A DNA stretch of 40,772 nt, taken from the IMG/VR virus record IMGVR_UViG_3300028456_000002, positions 1 to 40,772 of that record; one strand, 5' to 3'. The position numbers and the translations under genes were made by a program. Positions within the stretch are counted from its first letter, which is position 1. Each line of letters starts with the position of its first letter. The stretch is from a virus (lineage: Duplodnaviria > Heunggongvirae > Uroviricota > Caudoviricetes). Positions 13,881-39,136 of the stretch are shown piece by piece. The notes beneath the pieces are model-generated. The model searched no databases and was not told where the DNA came from. It was given only the letters and a program-made list of their open reading frames with translations.

Positions 13881-15839
13881 TTACGCCGTACATTTCACCA
13901 GACCGCGGTGATCAACTGGCGCGACACCGGCGTCAATACGCACTTTCGTTGTCACGCCATCCACACTGAAGCCCTCCATCTGATCAATATATGGCGTATC
14001 CACACCGTTGAGATAAGCCACTTCAATCGTATCGGAGCCTTTTGACGCAGCCAGGTAGAAGGTGGTCTGGCTGTTATCATCAAGACGAGGCTCTGCAATA
14101 ACGGTCGCAAAATCTTTCACCGGGTTAATAATACCGGCGTTAATGTCAGCCCCCTTGACACTTGAGGAGCGAATGACCTGGTTAGCAACAGACTCCATCG
14201 CCGTCGGTACCAGTACGAACGCAGGACGAATATTCAGATGACGCTCCCCCTCTTTCTGAACGCGCATCAACTGGCGGGCTTTATCCAGCGATGCCACGTC
14301 CATTGCAGCGCTCTCCAGTACGTTTGCATGTTTCGCTTTATCGAACAGACTTACATTATCTGTGGAGATTTTCGGGTTAGACGTCAGAATGGCATAAACC
14401 AGATCGGCAATAGTGGATTTCGCCGCACGGCCCAGTTTCATCGGGACATCGGTCAGCATATTCAGATCATCATTGATAATGGCCTGACGGGTGATACTGA
14501 ACAGCTCGCCATAGGTCGCCAGTGCAATAGTGGCCTGTTTATCTCCGGTGGTGACGTATTTATATTCCGCCCCTTCACGCACCTGACGCAGAGCACTGAA
14601 GCCCCCCATACCCACACGATGGGCAATTTTAAAATCAGACAACTGACCTTTCCGCGTCCACTGTTCATAGGTTTCAGGGGCATCTTCCCAGCCCTGCAGA
14701 ATGGCTTTGTTCGCAACATCCAGCAGAATATTACCGAAGTCAGACGTACTGTGTGTGAACGCCGCACCGACCATCTGCATCGGGTTATAACCGGAAACCC
14801 CAATACCCCGTTCAGTCAGTGACATACGGGCATATTCACGCAGGGTCATCCCGTTGTAGACATTATCACGTTCGGTTTTTTCAAATCCGGCACGCGCCAT
14901 CAGCGCCTGGCGGATCCCGTCCCCCACAAAATTACCGTTACCGGCATAAATATGAGCCGGGGTATTTTTATTGGATGGCGTGGACTCGCGCCCCATCTCG
15001 TTCAACAGCTTTTCGCGGGCCTGCTCCAGCGAACATTCAGGATCGGCAAGACACTGAGCCTGCAGCGTCTGATAACGCCCGCCAAACATGGCAAACAGAT
15101 CATTAATACCGTTTACACGCGCTTTTTGCTCTGCCAGTACCTGCGCACGGATACTGTTTTCATCCACCACGGGTGCTGCTGCCTGCACTGGCGTCCGGGA
15201 AGCTGCAGGTTCATTATCCTGTACGCGTGGAGCACTGTTGCGTGGCGGAGTAATCATGTTTCGAATGGATTCCGGCATCTTTTTAAATTCCTCTGTACGT
15301 TTTGACTGAATACATGCCATTGCCTTAACGGCTGGCGTCACCTGATCAGCAAATCCATGTGCCAGACATTCGGCACCGGACATCCAGGTCTCATCCGCCA
15401 GCATGGCAGCAATTTCATCGGTGGTTTTCCCGGTTTTCTGTGCATAAGCGGGTAACAGAACCGCCTCAACTTTATCGAGCAGGTCGGCATAGGTGCGCAT
15501 GTCCTCCGCATCACCGCCCGTAAAGCCAAATGGTTTATGAATCATCATGAAGGTGTTTTCCGGCATAATGACCGGGTTTCCCACCATCGCAATGACCGAC
15601 GCCATTGATGCCGCCACACCGTCGACATAAACGGTAATGGACGCACCATGTGTTTTCAGTGCATTAAAAATGGCGATGCCTTCAAAGACATCGCCACCCG
15701 GTGAATTGATATGGAGATTAATGTGGGTGATATCGCCCAGTGCATTCAGATCACTGATAAACTGCTTCGCTGTAACCCCCCAGAAACCAATCTCGTCATA
15801 AATATAAATATCCGCGTCACTCTGGTGACCAGCCTGCAT
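13881..15839 (-). CDS. Prohead protease (ClpP-like) fused to major capsid protein
   Basis: ORF 13881..16100; start taken at MQAGHQSDADIYIYDEIGFWG just after the portal stop. N-terminal part has ClpP-like features (...HINSPGGDVFEG...), C-terminal part is capsid-like. Confidence 0.75.
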   Translation of the reverse strand: MQAGHQSDADIYIYDEIGFWGVTAKQFISDLNALGDITHINLHINSPGGDVFEGIAIFNALKTHGASITVYVDGVAASMASVIAMVGNPVIMPENTFMMIHKPFGFTGGDAEDMRTYADLLDKVEAVLLPAYAQKTGKTTDEIAAMLADETWMSGAECLAHGFADQVTPAVKAMACIQSKRTEEFKKMPESIRNMITPPRNSAPRVQDNEPAASRTPVQAAAPVVDENSIRAQVLAEQKARVNGINDLFAMFGGRYQTLQAQCLADPECSLEQAREKLLNEMGRESTPSNKNTPAHIYAGNGNFVGDGIRQALMARAGFEKTERDNVYNGMTLREYARMSLTERGIGVSGYNPMQMVGAAFTHSTSDFGNILLDVANKAILQGWEDAPETYEQWTRKGQLSDFKIAHRVGMGGFSALRQVREGAEYKYVTTGDKQATIALATYGELFSITRQAIINDDLNMLTDVPMKLGRAAKSTIADLVYAILTSNPKISTDNVSLFDKAKHANVLESAAMDVASLDKARQLMRVQKEGERHLNIRPAFVLVPTAMESVANQVIRSSSVKGADINAGIINPVKDFATVIAEPRLDDNSQTTFYLAASKGSDTIEVAYLNGVDTPYIDQMEGFSVDGVTTKVRIDAGVAPVDHRGLVKCTA

Positions 15840-17361: not shown

Positions 17362-17579
17362 CAGAACCTCGCCAGCCGGTACCCGGGATGCCCCCGTCGT
17401 CGTGTAATCAGAGCCGCAAGGCGGCGCTCCCACTCCTGCCGCCCCTGCCGGATCTCAGATAAGTTTTCCATGGTCATCTGCTGACCATTAAAGGTGACGG
17501 ATTTTCCGTCCAGCACCGCCATTTCAGCTTCCGTATAACGCTGAATCATGGCTTCAATATCATTCTGGTTCATAACCAT
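17361..17579 (-). CDS. W: Head-tail connector protein W-like
   Basis: 72 aa, C-terminus ...RRRGHPGYRLARF resembles lambda W end; stop overlaps portal start. Confidence 0.6.
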   Translation of the reverse strand: MVMNQNDIEAMIQRYTEAEMAVLDGKSVTFNGQQMTMENLSEIRQGRQEWERRLAALITRRRGHPGYRLARF

Positions 17580-19674
17580 CCTCCGGAAGTCATCCAGGGG
17601 TTAACATCGTCAGTTACTGTTTTCTTCCGTTTTTGTTTTTTAACAGGCGTGGATACCGATTCCGGTGAGGGTGACGGTTCGATACTGTCCGGGACACACT
17701 CCAGCCATGTTTCCCGGCTCGCCCATTCCGGTGCATCCGGCCAGCGGATCTTTTCGTATCCATGCAGAATGACCAGAGCCTCGGCATACACCATCAGGTC
17801 AAAGGCTTCGTTGGCACCGCGACCCGGCTTACTCCATTTCCCGTCACTGCTCCGCTCTTCATACGTCAGTTCGTCGTAAAACCAGCTCCCCAGCCAGTCA
17901 GGGAAATGCACATAGCCTGGACCTGGCGAATCACGCCATAACGCGTTATTCACCCGGTCTTTCAGGGCATCCGTCTGAAGAAGCCAGAGCGGCACATCAC
18001 CTGCGGCCTGCGCCCGTCGGCCCGTTCGTCCGATGTTATCAGGGAATGTACGGGTGATCAGTTTTGCGCGCCGGATGCTGTCGCCCTTAAACAGGTAAAT
18101 ACGTTTACCAAGGCCATCACGACGGCAACGACGCCAGAATTTATAGGCATTATCAGTGACCCCGTCTTCACCGCCGGAGTCCACCGCCATTGCCATCAGT
18201 CGCATTTGTTGAGAAGGATCGGAGGCCAGCGGCCAGCTTTTATCAAAAAAACATCTGTCAGCAGGACATCCCAGTCTTCCGGATAGCTGGCCGGATCAAT
18301 TCGCTGGCTCTCCCCGTCGCTGTCACCGCGCAATGACTGCGTGATGTTGTAACGATCAATAATCCAGCGTTCGCCACGGCTGCCATAGCCCGTTACCTGA
18401 ACCACAAAACGGCGATGACGTCCCGCCTGCACATCAACTGTCGCCACTAGGAAATTAACGCCATCCGGCACACTGCGGGGAGGAACTGGCTCTGCTCGCT
18501 GCTCAAGCAGCTCACTTTTTCGTTGCTCCATGCTGGCGCGGGGAAGATAAGGTAATCCCCAGTCGGTATTGATAACCGTCTTGAGTGTTTCTTCACTTCC
18601 GGTTGTCTCGTATTCCTGTTCTGCAGTAAGCAGTTTGTAAACGAGTTGCGAGAGTGTCTGGTAAGCAGCTGCCGGACCCTCCATCCAGAATGACGCAATA
18701 CGTGAACGCCTGGGATCACCATAACGACTGCCATCCGCACTGATGGATTCACCATCCCGCAACCAGACCCCACGTCCGTTCAGCTCACGTTTTTGTTCAG
18801 GCATAATCCGTCCTGAACAGAAAGGACACTGAATATAAGCCGCCTCACTTGCCAGCACGGGATCGGCAATATCACGGAAACCAGCAACCACATCGCCGCA
18901 GGGCTGAAAATACTCACCACAGTGTGGACATGGCCAGTACCAGCGACGGCGATCACCACGGTTATAGAGCGACAGGATCCCCGTGGTTGGTGGAGCCTCA
19001 TGCGGTGAAGTCCGTCGCCATTTCACATCCTTCACATCCCTGCCGGGGGAACTCTCCACCAGCGTCATACCGCTGGACATAAATGTGGTGGTACGTTTTG
19101 AGGCAAGAGAGAAGGCATCCCCCTCGCCATCAATATCTTCCGGAAAACGGTCATAATCCGTCAGCGCGACGCATTTATAATCTGATGAGGACATGATATT
19201 GACTGACGGCCAGCCGATTTTCAGGTAGTTGCCAGCAAGGAATGTTCTGTCATAAACGTTGTTGTCATTTTTGTTCGGACTCAGGCGACTGACCACTTCC
19301 GGGCTGACGCGAAACGTTCTGGCGAGTCGTTTTTTGGAGTGTTCGCGGGCTTTTTCCTCTGTCATCTGAATGATCAGCATATCCGCAGGATCGCAAATCA
19401 CGTTGTAAATCACCCAGCCGTCAATCAGGCCGATAGTCTTGCCGGTTCGTGCCGGACCAACAAATATCACTGCGTCGTATTCACGCGAGGCCAGGCAGTT
19501 CATCGGCTCAATAACATACGGTGCCACCAGCGGATCCCACGGGACTGAGTTCCCGGCCCCCATGGGCACCCGCATATACTGAGCAACGGCATCAGCAACC
19601 CGCATTCGTCTCGGTGCGCGAAGGATATAACCTGAATCGGTTCGTGCTGCCTTTGCGGTTTCCTGATTCAGCAT
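17570..19674 (-). pseudogene. Terminase large subunit, split into two ORFs by a frameshift in a T7 run
   Basis: ORF 18196..19674 carries the N-terminal ATPase region (...WPCPHCGEYFQ... like lambda A); ORF 17570..18205 carries the C-terminal nuclease part. On the minus strand GATGTTTTTTTGATAAAAGC has 7 T; 8 T would give one continuous frame. Confidence 0.85.
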
Positions 19675-22215: not shown

Positions 22216-22348
22216 GTAATAAAACACCCCGTCAAAGGCACCCGCCGATGTCTTTTATGTGATGTATTCAGATTCAATACACGTTGAGTAAAGCGCAGAT
22301 ATGAAAAAGGCCCGCCGCAGCGAACAATAAAGAAACGAAATTCTGAAT

Positions 22349-22372
22349 AAAAAAAACCGCCAGATACGGCGG
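22349..22372 (-). terminator. Rho-independent terminator downstream of the tRNA pair
   Basis: Minus strand CCGCC-GTATCT-GGCGG followed by T8. Confidence 0.65.
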
Positions 22373-22734
22373 TTGGTCAATGCAAGAGATACATTCTTAA
22401 TTGTAATAAAACCGAGGTGTCGGGTGCCTCCCGAAGTATTCCGTCCTGTATGAATACTGTGGTTTCCCGCTAAACCGACTCTTTTAACCACCCTCGCCCT
22501 GAGGAGCGCCCCGATGGTGTTATTTACAACACCAGAATGATACATCACCGACCCTGCCAGGAAATACAAAATCTCCACCAGCAATGCACCATTCTGCTGC
22601 CGTAAAAAAATCAGCACTGAAGCTAACCTGGCCTCAAATCATAGCCAGAGAACAGAATGCTTTTTCAAAACAACCTGCTCCCACGTAATAAAAATACGCC
22701 AGTGCTGCAATACAATAAGGCTTATTTCAAATGC

Positions 22735-22809
<75 letters not shown>

Positions 22810-22812
22810 ATA

Positions 22813-22888
<76 letters not shown>

Positions 22889-24653: not shown

Positions 24654-24682
24654 AATATATGCTTTTTAATCTACTTTTGCAA
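24654..24682 (-). promoter_or_regulatory. pR'-like late promoter overlapping the Q stop codon
   Basis: Minus strand TTGCAA, 17 nt spacer, TATATT; a short transcript would end at the terminator at 24577..24600, the lambda pR'-qut-tR' layout. Confidence 0.55.
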
Positions 24683-25361
24683 TACTTTGCTTTGAAAATG
24701 CCGCCTTTTGTTCCGAACGCGTTCTCATTACCAACAATAAAGCCTCACTATCCAGCTGATGGAAAATGTGTTTCATTGCAACCCAGTGACCAGTAAATGT
24801 TTTGGACCAGTTTTTAGTTGTCACTCCCGCCAGTAATGCCAGATCCTGGTATTCATAACCTTCCCCGCCAAAAAGTTCTGCTTTTACTGCCTGCGCCGCC
24901 AGCCAGATTAATTTTTTCAGGCGTTCCCGTGTTTTCTCTGCAATTTTCCTGTTGCCAGAATGAGCCTTAAACTCTTCCCATGCCCAGCGGGTTATGGTGA
25001 CCTGATACTCCCAGCAAATATTTCCGCTGTAACACCACAACAACCAGGTTTTATGAGGTTCTTCAAGAGACAGAACAGCCCGTCGCCATGAGGATGTCGA
25101 AAACTCAACCTGACTTACCAGAGGAATTGACGTCCCCTTCGCCAGCGATTGTTTCCCCGGGATTGGTGGATTATCCCGCGTGATAATTTTTCCAGTCGCT
25201 TCATCGCGGTACCGGATTTTTTTACGCCTGTAACGCCCTGTATCGAACATGGCATTCTCCTGCCAGGCTTCAAGCTGACCTTTTGTTGCCCCACTCAAAT
25301 CGGCGGTGGCGATAATGAGCTGCTCACGAACAAACTGTAAATACTGGTTATTCATGCGCAC
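24666..25361 (-). CDS. Late gene antiterminator Q-like protein
   Basis: 231 aa ORF directly upstream of the pR'/tR'-like elements and downstream of rusA; assignment is positional, family not verified. Confidence 0.6.
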   Translation of the reverse strand: MRMNNQYLQFVREQLIIATADLSGATKGQLEAWQENAMFDTGRYRRKKIRYRDEATGKIITRDNPPIPGKQSLAKGTSIPLVSQVEFSTSSWRRAVLSLEEPHKTWLLWCYSGNICWEYQVTITRWAWEEFKAHSGNRKIAEKTRERLKKLIWLAAQAVKAELFGGEGYEYQDLALLAGVTTKNWSKTFTGHWVAMKHIFHQLDSEALLLVMRTRSEQKAAFSKQSIAKVD

Positions 25362-26777: not shown

Positions 26778-27056
26778 TTACCTCCAGATGCGTTGCTGGA
26801 ATGTGCGGGACGGACGCGGTGGGCGTTCGGAATAAGGGAGTCTGACGTAGATTATCCAGTGACGATAATCGAGGCTGAGGGCTTTCTTAATCTCGTATCC
26901 GCGTCTGCGGTAGCACTGAATTAACCATTCAGCCTGTTCTTCAGTGCATGGAGGATGCTGGTGCCAGTCGGTTTTAAATGCGCGTGAACCCCGCCCGTGC
27001 CTGCTGGCAAGGTCGGTTGAATCATCAGAATTGTGATGTTGGGTATAGCGTGCCAT
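26778..27056 (-). CDS. Hypothetical protein (Rem-position ORF)
   Basis: 92 aa ORF whose stop abuts the ydfU-like start; no recognised motif. Confidence 0.4.
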   Translation of the reverse strand: MARYTQHHNSDDSTDLASRHGRGSRAFKTDWHQHPPCTEEQAEWLIQCYRRRGYEIKKALSLDYRHWIIYVRLPYSERPPRPSRTFQQRIWR

Positions 27057-27122
27057 CGGTTTTCTCCGGTGGCACGGTGTTACTCAGCAGGAGTTCAATC
27101 CTGTTCTGGATTGTAGATGAGT

Positions 27123-27383
27123 TTATTCTTCTGCAAAAGCAGAAAATCCAGCCTTAAGACCAATCTCTTTCAGAACCTGTAATGATGTTACAAATTCATC
27201 TTCACGCAAAATAAAACCGTCCGTCATAAGCTCATCAACAAAATAAATTAACACAGCTCCGCTCTTCCTTTGTTGAGATTGCAAACATTTAATTCGGCAG
27301 TGACTGGCTATAACTCCATTCTCAACGCGTACAGCATAGAGGCCATTTTCACTAAAAATTTCACAAAATTCTTCTATTTTCAT
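27123..27383 (-). CDS. Hypothetical acidic 86-aa protein in an AT-rich island (cargo candidate)
   Basis: MKIEEFCEIFSENGLYAVRVENGVIASHCRIK...; visibly AT-rich relative to flanks; AAGGA ribosome-binding site; own candidate promoter at 27466..27493. Confidence 0.55.
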   Translation of the reverse strand: MKIEEFCEIFSENGLYAVRVENGVIASHCRIKCLQSQQRKSGAVLIYFVDELMTDGFILREDEFVTSLQVLKEIGLKAGFSAFAEE

Positions 27384-27465
27384 CTTCAGAATCCTTCCAG
27401 ATAAATAGCTCTCCCCTTCTCAGGGTCCATCCCTCTTGTCCCTGCGCGCTACTCAAAACAGGAGG

Positions 27466-27493
27466 ATTCTAATTAATCTTTATTTCTAAGCAA
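27466..27493 (-). promoter_or_regulatory. Candidate sigma70 promoter of the AT-rich 86-aa ORF
   Basis: Minus strand TTGCTT, 16 nt spacer, TAGAAT; T-tracts and the 9-bp repeat array lie immediately upstream. Confidence 0.4.
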
Positions 27494-27530
27494 CGCAAAA
27501 AACAAACCAAAAAAAAGACAAAACCACAAA

Positions 27531-27590
27531 CAATACAAACAATACAAACAATACAAACAATACAAACAATACAAACAATACAAACAATAC
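27531..27590. repeat. Tandem repeat, 9-bp unit CAATACAAA, 6 perfect copies plus a partial seventh
   Basis: Read directly: caatacaaa repeated head-to-tail from 27531 to 27584, then caatacagg; intergenic. Confidence 0.9.
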
Positions 27591-27667
27591 AGGCGCATCG
27601 ATAATTAATTAACTTATCGGGCTACAAGGTAATATAACTTCAGTTAAAATTATTAATCTCTTATTCG

Positions 27668-27693
27668 TGAAAAACAAAACCCGCCGAAGCGGG
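27668..27693 (-). terminator. Rho-independent terminator of the hok transcript
   Basis: Minus strand CCCGC-TTCG-GCGGG followed by TTTTGTTTTT. Confidence 0.6.
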
Positions 27694-27763
27694 TTAAGTG
27701 CGGGTGCTTTGAGGATGCCTGACACATCAGAGGTGGCGAGGGATTTCTCCCTCGCCTGGTCTC

Positions 27764-27919
27764 TTACTCCTCAGATTCGTAAGCTGTGAAGACAGCGACC
27801 TCCGTCTGGCCGGTTCGGATTCGTACCTCGCAGAGGTCTTTCCTCGTTACCAGTGCCGTCACTATGACGGTTAAACAGATGACGATCAGGGCGATTAACA
27901 TCGCCTTTTGCTGCTTCAT
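27764..27919 (-). CDS. hok: Hok/Gef family type I toxin (HokD-like), inside an N-terminally extended mok frame 27764..27976
   Basis: MKQQKAMLIALIVICLTVIVTALVTRKDLCEVRIRTGQTEVAVFTAYESEE, 51 aa, single TM helix, near-identical to chromosomal Hok proteins; the 70-aa in-frame upstream extension corresponds to mok. Confidence 0.85.
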   Translation of the reverse strand: MKQQKAMLIALIVICLTVIVTALVTRKDLCEVRIRTGQTEVAVFTAYESEE

Positions 27920-28199
27920 AGCCTGCTTCTCCTTGCCTTTCGGCATGTAAGAGGCTAACCTACATGTGCAAAGCATGAAATTGGCCTCAGATTAATGTTA
28001 AGCGTCTTGCCGGACGCGTAATGTTAACTGGGGCTTTTCTCTATCTGCCGTTGGTGTTCATGCCTGAGACAGATAGCCTCAAGCACCCGCAGCAATTCTA
28101 CTTAACTATCCTTTTCCCGCAAATCGTTTTTATCCCCAGCGGCAAATCGAATACACCACCAGCGCCACTGCCATCGCGATTCCTACTGTTGTGAATGCC

Positions 28200-33559: not shown

Positions 33560-34082
33560 ACGAACCCCTGGCAGACATTTGTTTATCTGCAAAGTAATAT
33601 TGATATTGCTGACGATACGCATGCTTGAAAGCAATAGCTTTTTCTATAAGCTCGTCAGTCTCACGTTCCACAACAGATGGATCCGCAAAAAGCAGCCCAG
33701 ACTCCACCACATCGCCATATTCTTTGTTTAATCCGGCGATCATGTACGTAATGCTTTTTCCATCACTGATCTCACGATACAACCTGAAATCACTAATTCG
33801 GATAGCCTCCATAATTGCCGGAATCAGCGCCGTGAATTTTTTCCGCTTATCCCTGGTGTCGATAGCTTTCCAGCGTTCGAATATCTTCACCCGGTTAACG
33901 CCCAGCGCCCGTTGATCAACCTCGCCATCATTAAACGTGACGCGTTGAACATCGATGTTCGGGCGTTCTTTCAGAGCCCAGAATGCTTCCGTGATTAATA
34001 TCGTCGCCTGCTCCTGTGTCATTCCTGGTCGGCACACCCAGGCATCCAGAGCCTCACAAACCTGTTCAGGGGTGATTTTCAT
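33531..34082 (-). CDS. YdaT-like protein (cII-position gene)
   Basis: 183 aa immediately downstream of the Cro-like gene; resemblance to Rac YdaT is from memory only. Confidence 0.5.
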   Translation of the reverse strand: MKITPEQVCEALDAWVCRPGMTQEQATILITEAFWALKERPNIDVQRVTFNDGEVDQRALGVNRVKIFERWKAIDTRDKRKKFTALIPAIMEAIRISDFRLYREISDGKSITYMIAGLNKEYGDVVESGLLFADPSVVERETDELIEKAIAFKHAYRQQYQYYFADKQMSARGSYEYRCTTMG

Positions 34083-34293
34083 TGTTCAACCGCCCCGCCC
34101 GCTTTGCCTTACGATATTCGTCATAAACTTTGGGGTCGTACTGAAGTTCCCCGCCGGATGCCTCTTGCAGGCGCATCGCGCGACCTTCAGGAACCAATTC
34201 CCCCCATTGAGAAACAGCAGATGGATCAACACCAGCAGCTTTCGCTACTTTGGCTTTCGTCCCATAAAAATTAATTACGTCTGATTTAAACAT
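34066..34293 (-). CDS. dicC: DicC-like Cro-type regulator
   Basis: ORF 34066..34320; ...LVPEGRAMRLQEASGGELQYDPKVYDEYRK.KRAGRLNNENH matches DicC from memory; divergent from dicA. Confidence 0.8.
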   Translation of the reverse strand: MFKSDVINFYGTKAKVAKAAGVDPSAVSQWGELVPEGRAMRLQEASGGELQYDPKVYDEYRKAKRAGRLNNENHP

Positions 34294-34370: not shown

Positions 34371-34778
34371 ATGAACGAGAAAACTTTAGGTCAACGAATT
34401 AGAGAAAGACGCAAACAGGTTGGTTTAAGTCAAAACGATTTAAGCAAAGCTGCTGGCGTATCTGGCTCATCAATTTCACTATGGGAAAGCGACCATACAG
34501 CCCCGCGCGGGCAAAATTTGCATCGCCTGGCTGAGGTATTGCAATGTTCACCAACTTGGATACTGTTTGGTGACGAGGATAAAACACCAGATCCACCAGT
34601 TGCACTCAACAGCGCCTTAGACTTATCGGAAGATGAGTTGGAGATGTTGCGATTGTATCGCGCACTTCCAAAATCAGAGCAGCAAGCACAAATCAGCGAA
34701 CTCCGTGCCCGCGTTGAGAATTTTAATCGCCTATTCACCGAGCTACTAGAAGCTCGCAAACGTAACAAACATCAATAA
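34371..34778 (+). CDS. dicA: DicA-like repressor (HTH, XRE family)
   Basis: 135 aa; ...NLHRLAEVLQCSPTWILFGDEDK... and ...ELRARVENFNRLFTELLEARKRNK closely match DicA from memory. Confidence 0.9.
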   Translation: MNEKTLGQRIRERRKQVGLSQNDLSKAAGVSGSSISLWESDHTAPRGQNLHRLAEVLQCSPTWILFGDEDKTPDPPVALNSALDLSEDELEMLRLYRALPKSEQQAQISELRARVENFNRLFTELLEARKRNKHQ

Positions 34779-36195: not shown

Positions 36196-36384
36196 ATGGA
36201 AACGTTATTACCAAACGTTAATACGTCTGAAGGTTGTTTTGAAATTGGTGTCAAAATCAGTAACCCTGCATTTACTGAAGATGCCATTAATAAGAGAAAA
36301 CACGAACGGGAGCTATTAAATCAAATATGCATTGTTTCAATGCTGGCCCGTTTACGTCTGATGCAAAAAGGATGCTGGCAATGA
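36196..36384 (+). CDS. dicB: Cell division inhibitor DicB
   Basis: METLLPNVNTSEGCFEIGVKISNPAFTEDAINKRKHERELLNQICIVSMLARLRLMQKGCWQ, 62 aa, near-identical to K-12 DicB from memory. Confidence 0.9.
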   Translation: METLLPNVNTSEGCFEIGVKISNPAFTEDAINKRKHERELLNQICIVSMLARLRLMQKGCWQ

Positions 36385-36664: not shown

Positions 36665-39136
36665 ATGAGTAAAGTCTTTATTTGCGCCGCCATTCCGGAC
36701 GAACAGGCAATTAAGGAAGAAGGTGCAGTTGCTGTAGCCACTGCCATCGAAGCCGGTGACGAACGCCGCGCCCGTGCCAAATTTATCTGGCAATTCCTGG
36801 AGCAATATCCGGCTGCTCAGGACTGCGCTTATAAATTTCTTGTCTGCGAGGATAAACCCGGCATGCCCCGCCCTGCCATCGACACCTGGGATACCGAATA
36901 TATGCAGGAAAACCGCTGGGATGAGGAATCCGCTTCCTTTGTTCCGGTCGAACCAGAATCCGCTCCGATGAACGTCAATTTTGACAAGCTGTCCCTTGAA
37001 GTACAGAACGCGGTCCTGGTTAAGTTCGGTACATGTGAAAACATCACCGTTGATATGGCGATTGACGCGCAGGAATTACTGCAGGAAGACGTTGCTACCT
37101 TTGACGGGCATATCGTTGAAGCACTGATAAAAACGCCTGAAATTAACGCTATGTATCCGGAACGCAAACTGTTCGCTATCGGTTGGGTTAAACACAAATG
37201 TAATCCGGGTGCCAAATGGCCCGAAATTCAGGCTGAATTACGTAACTGGAAAAAACGGCAGGACGCAGAGCGCAAAGAGACTGGAAAATATACTTCTGTT
37301 GTTGATCTCGCCCGCGCCAGAGTCAACCGACAGCACACTGAAAACTCAGCAGCAAAAATCAACCCTGTCACTGCTGCCATTCGTCGCGAATACAAGCAGA
37401 CATGGAAAACACTGGATGAAGAACTGGCCTACGCTCTCTGGCCTGGTGATATTGATGCCGGAAACATTGACGGCAGCATCCATCGCTGGGCAAAAAATGA
37501 AGTTATCGACAAAGATCGCGAAGACTGGAAGCGTATTTCCGCATCAATGCGCAAACAACCTGATGCCGTTCGCTACGACCGTCAGACTATTTTTGGCCTT
37601 GTCCGTGAACGTCCCATCGACATTCATAAAGATCCTGTGGCGCTGAACAAATACATCACCGAATACCTGACTACAAAGGGCGTGTTTGAAGATGAAGGAA
37701 CAAATCAGAGCACAACTAATACTCTCCCGTCGCCAGTACCAGAAGCTGATGCAGTGGAAACGGCAATTCCGGACAACGAAAAAACCGAATGCAAAGTGGA
37801 AGACGAACCATCTGTAGAGCGTGAGGGGCCGTTCTACTTCCTTTTCACCGATAAGGATGGCGAAAAATATGGTCGTGCAAACAAACTTTCTGGTCTGAAT
37901 AAGGCGCTGGCTGCAGGGGCTACTGAAATCACGAAAGAAGAATATTTTGCCCGCAAAAACGGCACATACTCAGGTTCACAACAAAATACTGGTGCATCTG
38001 ACACGATCGCACAACCAGAGCCGGTAAAAGTTACCGCTGACGAAGTAAACAGAATTATGCAGGCAGCCAATATCAGCCAGCCTGACGCCGATGAACTTCT
38101 TGCAGTATCACGTGGTGAATTTGTTGCAGGGATTAGCGATCCGAATGATCCGAAATGGGTGAAGGGGATTGAAACCCGCGATTCTGTGAACCAGAACCAG
38201 CAAGAAACGGAACAGAACGACCAGAAAGCGGAACAAAACAGCCCAAATACGCAACAAAACGAGCCAGAAACGAAACAACCTGAACCAGTAGTGCAACAGG
38301 AACCGGAAAAGACCTGCACCGCCTGCGGTCAGAGCGGTGGCGGCAACTGCCCTGATTGTGGTGCGGTGATGGGTGACGCAACATACCAGGAAATATTCGA
38401 TGGAGAGAATCAGCCTGAAGTTCAGGAAAATGATCCGGAGGAAATGGAAGGCACTGCGCATCAGCACAAGGAGAACACTGGCGGCAATCAGCATCATGCC
38501 AGCGATAGTGAAACTGGCGAGGCGTCAGATCCCTTAATTAAGGCGAACGGTCATTATAATCTCACATCCACCAGCAGAGCGGGAATTCATCTGATGATCG
38601 ACCTTGAAACCATGGGAAAAAATCCCGATGCCCCGATTATCTCAATAGGCGCAATATTTTTCGATCCACAAACCGGAGATATGGGACCGGAATTTAGCAA
38701 GACCATCGATCTGGATACTGCTGGCGGAGTCATTGATCGTGACGTCATTAAATGGTGGCTGAAGCAATCACGTGAAGCGCAGTCTGCCATTATGACCGAT
38801 GAAATCCCGTTAGATGATGCACTACTGCAATTGCGGGAATTTATCGCCGAAAACTCCGGTGAGTTTTTTGTTCAGGTCTGGGGAAATGGAGCCAACTTCG
38901 ACAACACGATTTTGCGCCGTTCATACGAACGGCAGGGGATCCCCTGCCCGTGGCGTTACTACAACGATCGCGATGTACGCACAATCGTTGAGCTGGGGAA
39001 AGCCATAGACTTCGATGCCAGAACTGCTATCCCATTCGAAGGTGAGCGCCATAATGCACTTGATGACGCTCGTTACCAGGCAAAATACGTTTCAGCTATC
39101 TGGCAAAAACTGATCCCGAGTCAGGCTGATTTTTAA
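36665..39136 (+). CDS. Large exonuclease: YdfE/RecE-like N-terminal and linker regions fused to a C-terminal DnaQ-like 3'-5' exonuclease domain
   Basis: 823 aa. C-terminus has DEDDh motifs (HLMIDLETMG; WGNGANFDNTIL; HNALDDARY). Central Gln/Glu/Asn-rich linker and zinc-ribbon CTACGQSGGGNCPDCG. Confidence 0.75.
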   Translation: MSKVFICAAIPDEQAIKEEGAVAVATAIEAGDERRARAKFIWQFLEQYPAAQDCAYKFLVCEDKPGMPRPAIDTWDTEYMQENRWDEESASFVPVEPESAPMNVNFDKLSLEVQNAVLVKFGTCENITVDMAIDAQELLQEDVATFDGHIVEALIKTPEINAMYPERKLFAIGWVKHKCNPGAKWPEIQAELRNWKKRQDAERKETGKYTSVVDLARARVNRQHTENSAAKINPVTAAIRREYKQTWKTLDEELAYALWPGDIDAGNIDGSIHRWAKNEVIDKDREDWKRISASMRKQPDAVRYDRQTIFGLVRERPIDIHKDPVALNKYITEYLTTKGVFEDEGTNQSTTNTLPSPVPEADAVETAIPDNEKTECKVEDEPSVEREGPFYFLFTDKDGEKYGRANKLSGLNKALAAGATEITKEEYFARKNGTYSGSQQNTGASDTIAQPEPVKVTADEVNRIMQAANISQPDADELLAVSRGEFVAGISDPNDPKWVKGIETRDSVNQNQQETEQNDQKAEQNSPNTQQNEPETKQPEPVVQQEPEKTCTACGQSGGGNCPDCGAVMGDATYQEIFDGENQPEVQENDPEEMEGTAHQHKENTGGNQHHASDSETGEASDPLIKANGHYNLTSTSRAGIHLMIDLETMGKNPDAPIISIGAIFFDPQTGDMGPEFSKTIDLDTAGGVIDRDVIKWWLKQSREAQSAIMTDEIPLDDALLQLREFIAENSGEFFVQVWGNGANFDNTILRRSYERQGIPCPWRYYNDRDVRTIVELGKAIDFDARTAIPFEGERHNALDDARYQAKYVSAIWQKLIPSQADF

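Follow-up and report, generated by a model that had tools for sequence, protein, structure and literature searches.

The DNA considered here, referred to throughout as the window, is the complete 40,772-nucleotide (nt) sequence of the IMG/VR virus record IMGVR_UViG_3300028456_000002 (Caudoviricetes). The subject of this report is a low-GC stretch at positions ~27000 to 27700, in which a small minus-strand gene, assigned below to the antirepressor family Rem, is preceded by its putative promoter and, further upstream, by a perfect 9-bp tandem array. The open reading frame (ORF) in question, 27123..27383 (-), starts with ATG and encodes 86 amino acids (aa) according to the ORF list. An initial annotation of this DNA had described it as AT-rich and acidic; indeed, its GC content is 0.36 and the isoelectric point of its product is 4.84, i.e., mildly acidic, with 14 aspartate and glutamate versus 9 lysine and arginine residues.

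That annotation could place the protein in no family and considered the neighbouring 92-aa ORF (26778..27056, phrog_1212) to be the gene in the Rem position. Homology searches lead to a different assignment. The 86-aa product matches K-12 Rem (b1561) over its full length with 59 of 86 residues identical (69%, E 8e-38) and is 74% identical to a product of strain 55989 annotated as “rem: protein Rem”, while the gene order DUF968 (ydfU)–small ORF–rem–hokD is the same as in the Qin prophage of K-12. Judged by this similarity, ORF 27123..27383 (-) itself is rem and encodes a member of the Rem family of prophage antirepressors; the 92-aa ORF is a separate gene. The gene is, hence, a further member of a known, experimentally characterised family. 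The precomputed Pfam family PF27490.1 is assigned to all 86 homologue clusters retrieved from a collection of 5.8 billion proteins, and the product matches phrog_340 (5e-17), a PHROGs family of unknown function. Local scans of the ORF with Pfam (in a copy that does not contain PF27490.1), NCBIfam and PADLOC gave no match, the number of defence families found by PADLOC being zero. The Rem family is narrow, with 59 representatives at E ≤ 1e-3 among 1.84 billion sequences, essentially from Escherichia and Shigella; shorter relatives of 56–79 aa have the C-terminal core GF.LR.DEFVTSL in common. Structure prediction and profile searching, both suggested in the initial annotation, yielded no fold assignment: the AlphaFold2 model is mediocre (predicted local distance difference test score, pLDDT, of 70.8; five strands and a C-terminal helix), a Foldseek search with this model against PDB returned nothing below E = 0.1, and a PDB sequence profile search returned nothing below E = 0.46. 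It was the homology search that identified the protein as Rem.

In 12 of 12 close relatives, this rem allele (region 27095..27383 (-)) carries the RefSeq/PGAP label “hypothetical protein, frameshifted”. DNA alignment points to the reference as the source of the discrepancy; the 95-aa RefSeq reference protein (WP_000687440.1 type) has a 1-bp deletion near the 3′ end, and the window product keeps the ...GFSAFAEE terminus that it has in common with K-12 Rem, indicating that the 86-aa frame is the ancestral one. The rem gene is, therefore, regarded as intact, and the “frameshifted” label looks like an annotation artefact. This implies a correction for the RefSeq genomes, where an intact rem allele is carried as a frameshifted pseudogene.

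Megablast against 5426 complete Escherichia coli genomes recovered the whole segment 27050..27700 in 12 genomes and matched the ORF with its leader alone in many more, at 81–91% identity; matches covering rem recur in a large share of the collection. In the window, the GC content of 0.36 in rem and 0.34 at 27384..27670 stands against 0.515 for the whole sequence and 0.51–0.54 for the neighbouring genes. The initial annotation had taken this contrast, which is real, as a sign of horizontally acquired cargo. However, GC is uniformly low in rem, ranging from 0.37 to 0.42 in 80 alleles and amounting to 0.405 in K-12. Because low GC is common to all rem alleles, it provides no evidence of recent acquisition as accessory cargo; rather, the composition contrast reflects a long-standing feature of the family, rem being a regulatory gene of Qin/mEp460-type lambdoid phages. 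That the ORF is, instead, unrelated accessory cargo, e.g., an anti-phage or host-modifying moron, would agree with its low GC, its own promoter and the lack of matches in the local Pfam, NCBIfam and PADLOC scans, but it conflicts with the conserved synteny of dicA, dicC and dicB, with the GC content shared among rem alleles and, above all, with the clear homology to the experimentally characterised K-12 Rem, by which this proposal appears largely refuted; we regard it as very improbable.

The expression signals of rem were correctly located in the initial annotation. The ribosome-binding site AAGGA (27396..27392) is part of a Shine–Dalgarno sequence GGAAGGA (27392..27398 (-)) situated 8 nt before the ATG, and the promoter candidate TTGCTT-16-TAGAAT consists of a candidate -35 hexamer at 27488..27493 (-) and a -10 hexamer at 27466..27471 (-) separated by a 16-nt spacer. 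The rem unit is bounded upstream by the intrinsic terminator of the hok transcript (27678..27695 (-)). The hok-to-rem intergenic region was compared among five variants, K-12 and 80 IMG/VR loci, the latter comprising 34 distinct terminator-to-ATG sequences of several dissimilar upstream types. Of the 80 rem loci, 78 have TAGAAT at 86–89 nt ahead of the ATG, and a -35-like hexamer lies 16–18 nt upstream of TAGAAT in all five variants inspected. TTGCTT is invariant in all “long” promoter variants; a consensus scanner missed the promoter because this hexamer matches TTGACA at only three of six positions. The fixed distance of the -10 hexamer despite differing upstream DNA argues for a real promoter, and there is, thus, good comparative evidence that rem is transcribed independently, as had been proposed. 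A LexA box (CTG-N10-CAG) was detected neither in the hok-to-rem intergenic region of the window nor in that of the four other variants, which fits the non-SOS behaviour reported for Qin.

Assuming that transcription starts ~7 nt after the -10 hexamer, i.e., at ~27459, the rem transcript would begin with a 5′ leader of ~76 nt (27384..27459 (-)) that is conserved even more highly than the coding sequence. Its layout is GTAGCGCGCAGGGA...GGAUGGACCC-loop-GGGG...GGAAGGAUUCUGAAG-AUG, including a hairpin of the form CCC(N)-loop-GGG(N) as well as five GGA motifs, of which one falls within the Shine–Dalgarno sequence, and in these features it is reminiscent of CsrA-bound leaders. The predicted fold is no more stable than that of shuffled sequence (z = 0.41), and among six leader sequences only one compensatory pair occurs; 25 distinct leaders, nearly all with an unchanged Shine–Dalgarno sequence, vary too little for a structure test. 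The Rfam scan of the window reported only sok and two tRNAs, with no family for the rem leader and no detection of DicF at the gathering score. The first ~45 nt of the leader are kept even where another ORF takes the place of rem. In five genomes (STEC306-308, DCE7 and CFIAFB20180540), the promoter module, together with an array that is imperfect or degenerate, stands before another ORF of 55 aa (MNDKELIAALSVPGNYEVIVLENGEF...; L127 1841..2008, L128 1799..1966, L129 1850..2017) in the rem slot, with the first half of the rem leader retained. This ORF shows weak N-terminal similarity to Rem only (hhalign probability 48%) and may represent another antirepressor that is controlled by this same module.

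In the Qin prophage, Rem acts as an antirepressor relieving repression by DicA, which belongs to the short CI-like repressors and escapes cleavage during the SOS response; ectopic Rem raised dicBp-lacZ transcription 165-fold, and ectopic K-12 Rem caused filamentation that was dependent on dicB and dicF (Ragunathan et al. 2023, J Bacteriol, PMC10448788). No other antirepressor acting on DicA-type repressors is known in E. coli. By homology, the window allele would be an antirepressor of a DicA-type repressor, and its presumed target is a DicA-like protein of 135 aa encoded at 34371..34778 (+), 56% identical to K-12 DicA (E 2e-51). Nearby are genes for a DicC/Cro-like regulator (34066..34293 (-), 71% identical to K-12 DicC) and for a DicB-like cell-division inhibitor (36196..36384 (+)), the translation of which contains METLLPNVNTSEGCFEIG...MLARLRL and whose equivalent in the closest relative prophage, L017, is annotated dicB; the operon of this DicB-like gene would be expected to be derepressed by Rem.

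Upstream of the rem promoter, Tandem Repeats Finder delimits a 9-bp tandem array at 27526..27591 with 7.3 perfect copies of a unit that reads ACAAACAAT on the plus strand and ATTGTTTGT on the minus strand (period 9, 100% matches, score 132), far beyond chance expectation. The six copies of CAATACAAA at 27531..27584 given in the initial annotation are correct in that register; the periodicity continues for another 5 nt and 7 nt, respectively. Relative to the inferred start, the array spans ~-67 to -132, 33 nt upstream of the -35 hexamer. The T-tracts noted next to it correspond to a T-rich tract between array and -35 (27494..27525 (-), ~-35 to -66), including a homopolymer at 27509..27516 (~-50 to -57), which has 8 bases in the window and 7, 8 or 9 among relatives.

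Comparison of copy number across related prophages, as recommended in the initial annotation, revealed pronounced polymorphism. The sample comprised 14 loci, namely, the window, ten complete genomes, one IMG/VR prophage and two metagenome contigs, one of which breaks off within the array. Eight alleles were found among them, with 4.33, 5.33 (two loci), 6.33, 7.33 (three), 8.33, 10.33 (three), 11.33 and 13.33 (two) copies. Pairs of loci without a single difference in 900 flanking nt differ by 2–8 copies (13 versus 5, 6 versus 10, and 5 versus 7). The array is a true hypervariable variable-number tandem repeat (VNTR), changing much faster than point substitutions accumulate, and it provides a highly discriminating marker for prophages of this type. 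The variant with the array is rare, being present in 12 of 5426 complete E. coli genomes. No isolated phage record with this promoter variant was found; a scan of one genome per species gave no match to the array, 24 of 25 matches in IMG/VR were unrelated AT-rich viruses, and the repeat sequence did not appear in any of the papers searched. Arrays of 4 or 2 copies of the unit CAACACAAA occur in two further genomes, and in a sister lineage, whose Rem is 86–87% identical and whose core promoter is the same, this position is occupied by 3, 5, 5 and 6 copies of the unit TTGTTGTAT (rem strand). Other loci (L069, L128) retain a degenerate remnant of an array at this site, and most rem loci, including that of K-12, are without any array.

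The perfect, head-to-tail arrangement of the units and their AT-rich composition, which is typical of nucleoid-protein targets, could also be taken to indicate iteron-like, iterated binding sites for a phage or host DNA-binding protein, with copy number setting occupancy and not spacing. The unit sequence, however, differs between lineages, a repeat length of 9 bp does not keep phase with the helical turn of DNA, no word of at least 10 bases recurs in the dicA/dicC operator region, and no candidate binding protein was found, so that such a role of the array appears improbable. Another explanation is that the repeat is translated. A 41-aa ORF (27473..27598 (-)) runs through the array and would encode M-R-(LYC)7-WFCLFFGLFFALLRNKD, i.e., a small hydrophobic peptide M-R-(LYC)n-... 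whose length would vary in frame with the 9-bp unit, a multiple of three. It is open in all 13 loci examined, but this openness is uninformative, since all three frames of the T/G-rich repeat are without stop codons. No Shine–Dalgarno sequence precedes its ATG, homopolymer length determines the frame in which its C-terminus is read, and the sister variant lacks an ATG at this point. For these three reasons, the ORF was rejected as coding, and a peptide encoded by the repeat is hardly credible.

Between the hok terminator and the array lies a conserved AT-rich block of ~80 nt (27592..27677; alignment of 16 long-variant loci), which is confined to the “long” promoter variants. Next to the distal end of the array, it contains the inverted repeat CGATAA-N9-TTATCG (27599..27619), a candidate regulator site. 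The inverted repeat includes GTTAATTAA, which resembles an ArcA half-site. A comparison of the rem upstream region with the dicA/dicC intergenic region found no operator-like words in common beyond AATTAATTA. The array-bearing rem lineage, thus, possesses a distinctive upstream control region made up of the AT-rich block with its inverted repeat, the array and the variable homopolymer. A hypervariable 9-bp VNTR combined with a variable homopolymer in front of an antirepressor promoter does not seem to have been described before; the literature was searched for expression data on b1561 and for antirepressors under repeat control, with no relevant result.

We consider it fairly probable that the locus is the Rem antirepressor unit of a Qin/mEp460-type prophage equipped with a slippage-prone, near-neutral spacer array. 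According to this proposal, rem would have a sigma-70 promoter of its own, TTGCTT-16-TAGAAT, located just past the hok/sok terminator, and the transcript would run through the conserved leader. Rem would then, by homology with its K-12 counterpart, inactivate the non-cleavable DicA-type repressor of the prophage, which would derepress the early operon with dicB and, in an intact phage, the lytic programme. The array itself would be a hypermutable spacer, prone to slippage, in T/G-rich DNA between the conserved upstream block and the promoter, and we infer that it is most probably a near-neutral VNTR, its quantitative effect on rem transcription being modest at best. Since the array is located upstream of the -35 hexamer and outside of rem, its copy number can alter neither the -35/-10 spacing nor the rem reading frame, and the classical ON/OFF mechanisms are thereby removed. 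The repeat number is highly polymorphic, in line with the initial annotation, but the classical slipped-strand phase variation put forward there agrees poorly with this geometry, and ON/OFF switching is unlikely. What changes in the array can alter are the distance and the rotational setting of the upstream block versus the promoter (9 bp corresponding to ~-51 degrees per unit) as well as the length of the AT-rich tract. Near-neutrality is supported by the position of the array outside the -35/-10 spacer, by the degenerate arrays in some lineages, by the absence of an array from most rem loci and by allele sizes that show no obvious restriction.

Several observations weigh against this interpretation. 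Arrays with a 9-bp period occur at exactly the same position in at least four lineages, with the units ATTGTTTGT, GTGTTGTTT, TTGTTGTAT and imperfect ATTGTTTGT. The array is flanked by a conserved block whose inverted repeat shows compensatory change; the sister lineage has CGAATG-N10-CATTCG in place of CGATAA-N9-TTATCG, the CGAT/ATCG versus CGAA/TTCG difference being partly compensatory. A recurrent array next to a conserved inverted repeat would also fit a regulator site for which the distance to the promoter matters. In addition, the homopolymer of 7–9 bases constitutes a second variable tract between array and -35. Two further points concern the gene and its presumed target. One is the RefSeq pseudogene annotation of the rem allele, with the reservation that the reference protein itself is indicated as frameshifted. 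The other is that Rem is 99% identical in the window and L017, whereas the DicA proteins (window 34371..34778, L017 27199..27606) are only 57% identical. Either Rem recognises a conserved part of DicA (VLQCSPTWILFGDEDK is kept in both alleles) or mosaicism has uncoupled the pair; with the same Rem allele found beside such different DicA alleles, the Rem–DicA pairing in the window is, therefore, an assumption.

The same observations bring into consideration a contingency or rheostat locus, at which slippage of the array and the homopolymer would heritably and reversibly change the output of the rem promoter. Slippage could either shift or rotate the upstream block, inverted repeat included, with respect to RNA polymerase, or lengthen and shorten an AT-rich tract to which a nucleoid protein binds. 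Sub-lineages of a lysogen would then differ in their Rem level and, hence, in DicA inactivation, dicB expression or the frequency of prophage induction. High allelic diversity with identical flanks, persistence of the array at one site across lineages with turnover of the unit, the abutting conserved inverted repeat and the variable homopolymer at ~-50 to -57 are all in line with this idea, as are the missing LexA box and the explicit statement that the condition or signal inducing Rem is unknown (PMC10448788). On the other hand, the array is not part of the core promoter, the inverted repeat has its centre at ~-150, a distance too great for simple class I activation, no regulator was found, three isolates of one strain series (STEC306-308) have identical lengths, and both degenerate arrays and array-less promoters exist. 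Taking both sides together, a rheostat is possible but doubtful. Precedents for such behaviour are the TAAA repeats upstream of the nadA promoter of Neisseria meningitidis, the 7-bp repeats upstream of hmw1A/hmw2A of Haemophilus influenzae, and the hif TA repeats as a case of promoter-associated simple-sequence-repeat (SSR) phase variation. E. coli is not known for promoter SSR loci, and a full-text literature search found no precedent of an SSR-controlled prophage antirepressor.

That the array and the 7–9-base homopolymer would together provide SOS-independent, repeat-driven bet-hedging control of the lysis–lysogeny switch in E. coli is, in our estimate, unlikely. If it were true, slippage would retune rem heritably, and the descendants of one lysogen would differ in DicA inactivation, dicB expression or prophage induction. 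The natural allelic series of 4 to 13 copies offers a direct experimental handle on rem transcription and on what controls Rem, and it bears on whether the frequency of prophage derepression can evolve by repeat slippage.

Apart from the rem unit, the window is a lambda-like siphovirus prophage with tail, head, portal and terminase genes, a Q antiterminator and an integrase. The rem slot lies in the nin-like region upstream of Q, whose antiterminator gene is found at 24666..25361. The upstream neighbour of rem is a hok/sok type I toxin–antitoxin locus (27764..28088 (-); Pfam and Rfam), comprising the hok coding sequence at 27764..27919 (-) (HOK_GEF, 2.7e-23) and a sok RNA match at 27914..28088 (-) (112 bits); this hok locus has a full sok/mok-type regulatory region, whereas hokD of K-12 follows relBE. 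Two tRNA genes (22738..22888 (-)) separate the Q/methylase region from the lysis genes, an arrangement seen in many lambdoid and Stx-type prophages. In the closest relative, L017 (strain CFIAFB20180511, prophage beside ompW), subtilase-cytotoxin-like genes encoding an S8 peptidase and two AB5 binding subunits are present at 14169..16079 of L017, in the interval from the lysis genes to the tRNAs; this segment is missing from the window (window 22259..22733). The large terminase subunit gpA (17570..19674 (-)) is divided into two overlapping ORFs of 492 aa and 211 aa, with the nuclease domain distributed over both, which suggests a frameshift and a possibly defective prophage. A second tandem repeat (38188..38278; period 21, 4.3 copies, 74% matches) lies within an 823-aa exonuclease-like gene (36665..39136) and codes for a low-complexity stretch rich in Q, E, N and P.

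Among related known systems are the small antirepressors of Gifsy and Fels prophages of Salmonella, such as GfoA and FsoA, which are described as antirepressors of short non-cleavable CI-like repressors (Lemire et al. 2011, as reported in PMC10448788). According to these descriptions, they resemble Rem as small proteins that inactivate DicA/GfoR-type repressors; Rem was first found through iterated searches seeded with GfoA and FsoA, and its activity was modelled on the LexA-controlled Gifsy antirepressors (PMC10448788). In contrast to the LexA control described there for the Gifsy antirepressors, the five rem promoter variants examined are without a LexA box, the comparison being based on the published description.

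K-12 Qin and the window share a homologous Rem in the same slot between ydfU/DUF968 and hokD, the -10 hexamer TAGAAT and the leader, in prophages of the same kind with DicA, DicC and DicB. They differ in that the rem promoter of Qin directly follows the hok terminator, with neither AT-rich block nor tandem array, while in the window ~200 nt including the VNTR are interposed between terminator and promoter. Furthermore, the window Rem has 86 aa versus 83 aa in K-12, with a 4-residue insertion, and its DicA partner is only 56% identical to that of K-12.

As for the repeat itself, E. coli VNTR loci serve for typing by multiple-locus VNTR analysis (MLVA). The window array resembles the MLVA loci in being intergenic, prophage-borne and rich in alleles, and differs from them in being rare and in not having been encountered in the papers searched. 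With the SSR promoters of nadA, hmw1A/hmw2A and hif, it has in common a perfect short tandem array beside a promoter and a copy number that is polymorphic among close relatives. In the window, however, the unit is 9 bp long and the array is positioned at -67 to -132, outside the -35/-10 spacer; and while the SSR promoters control surface proteins, the target in the window would be a prophage antirepressor.

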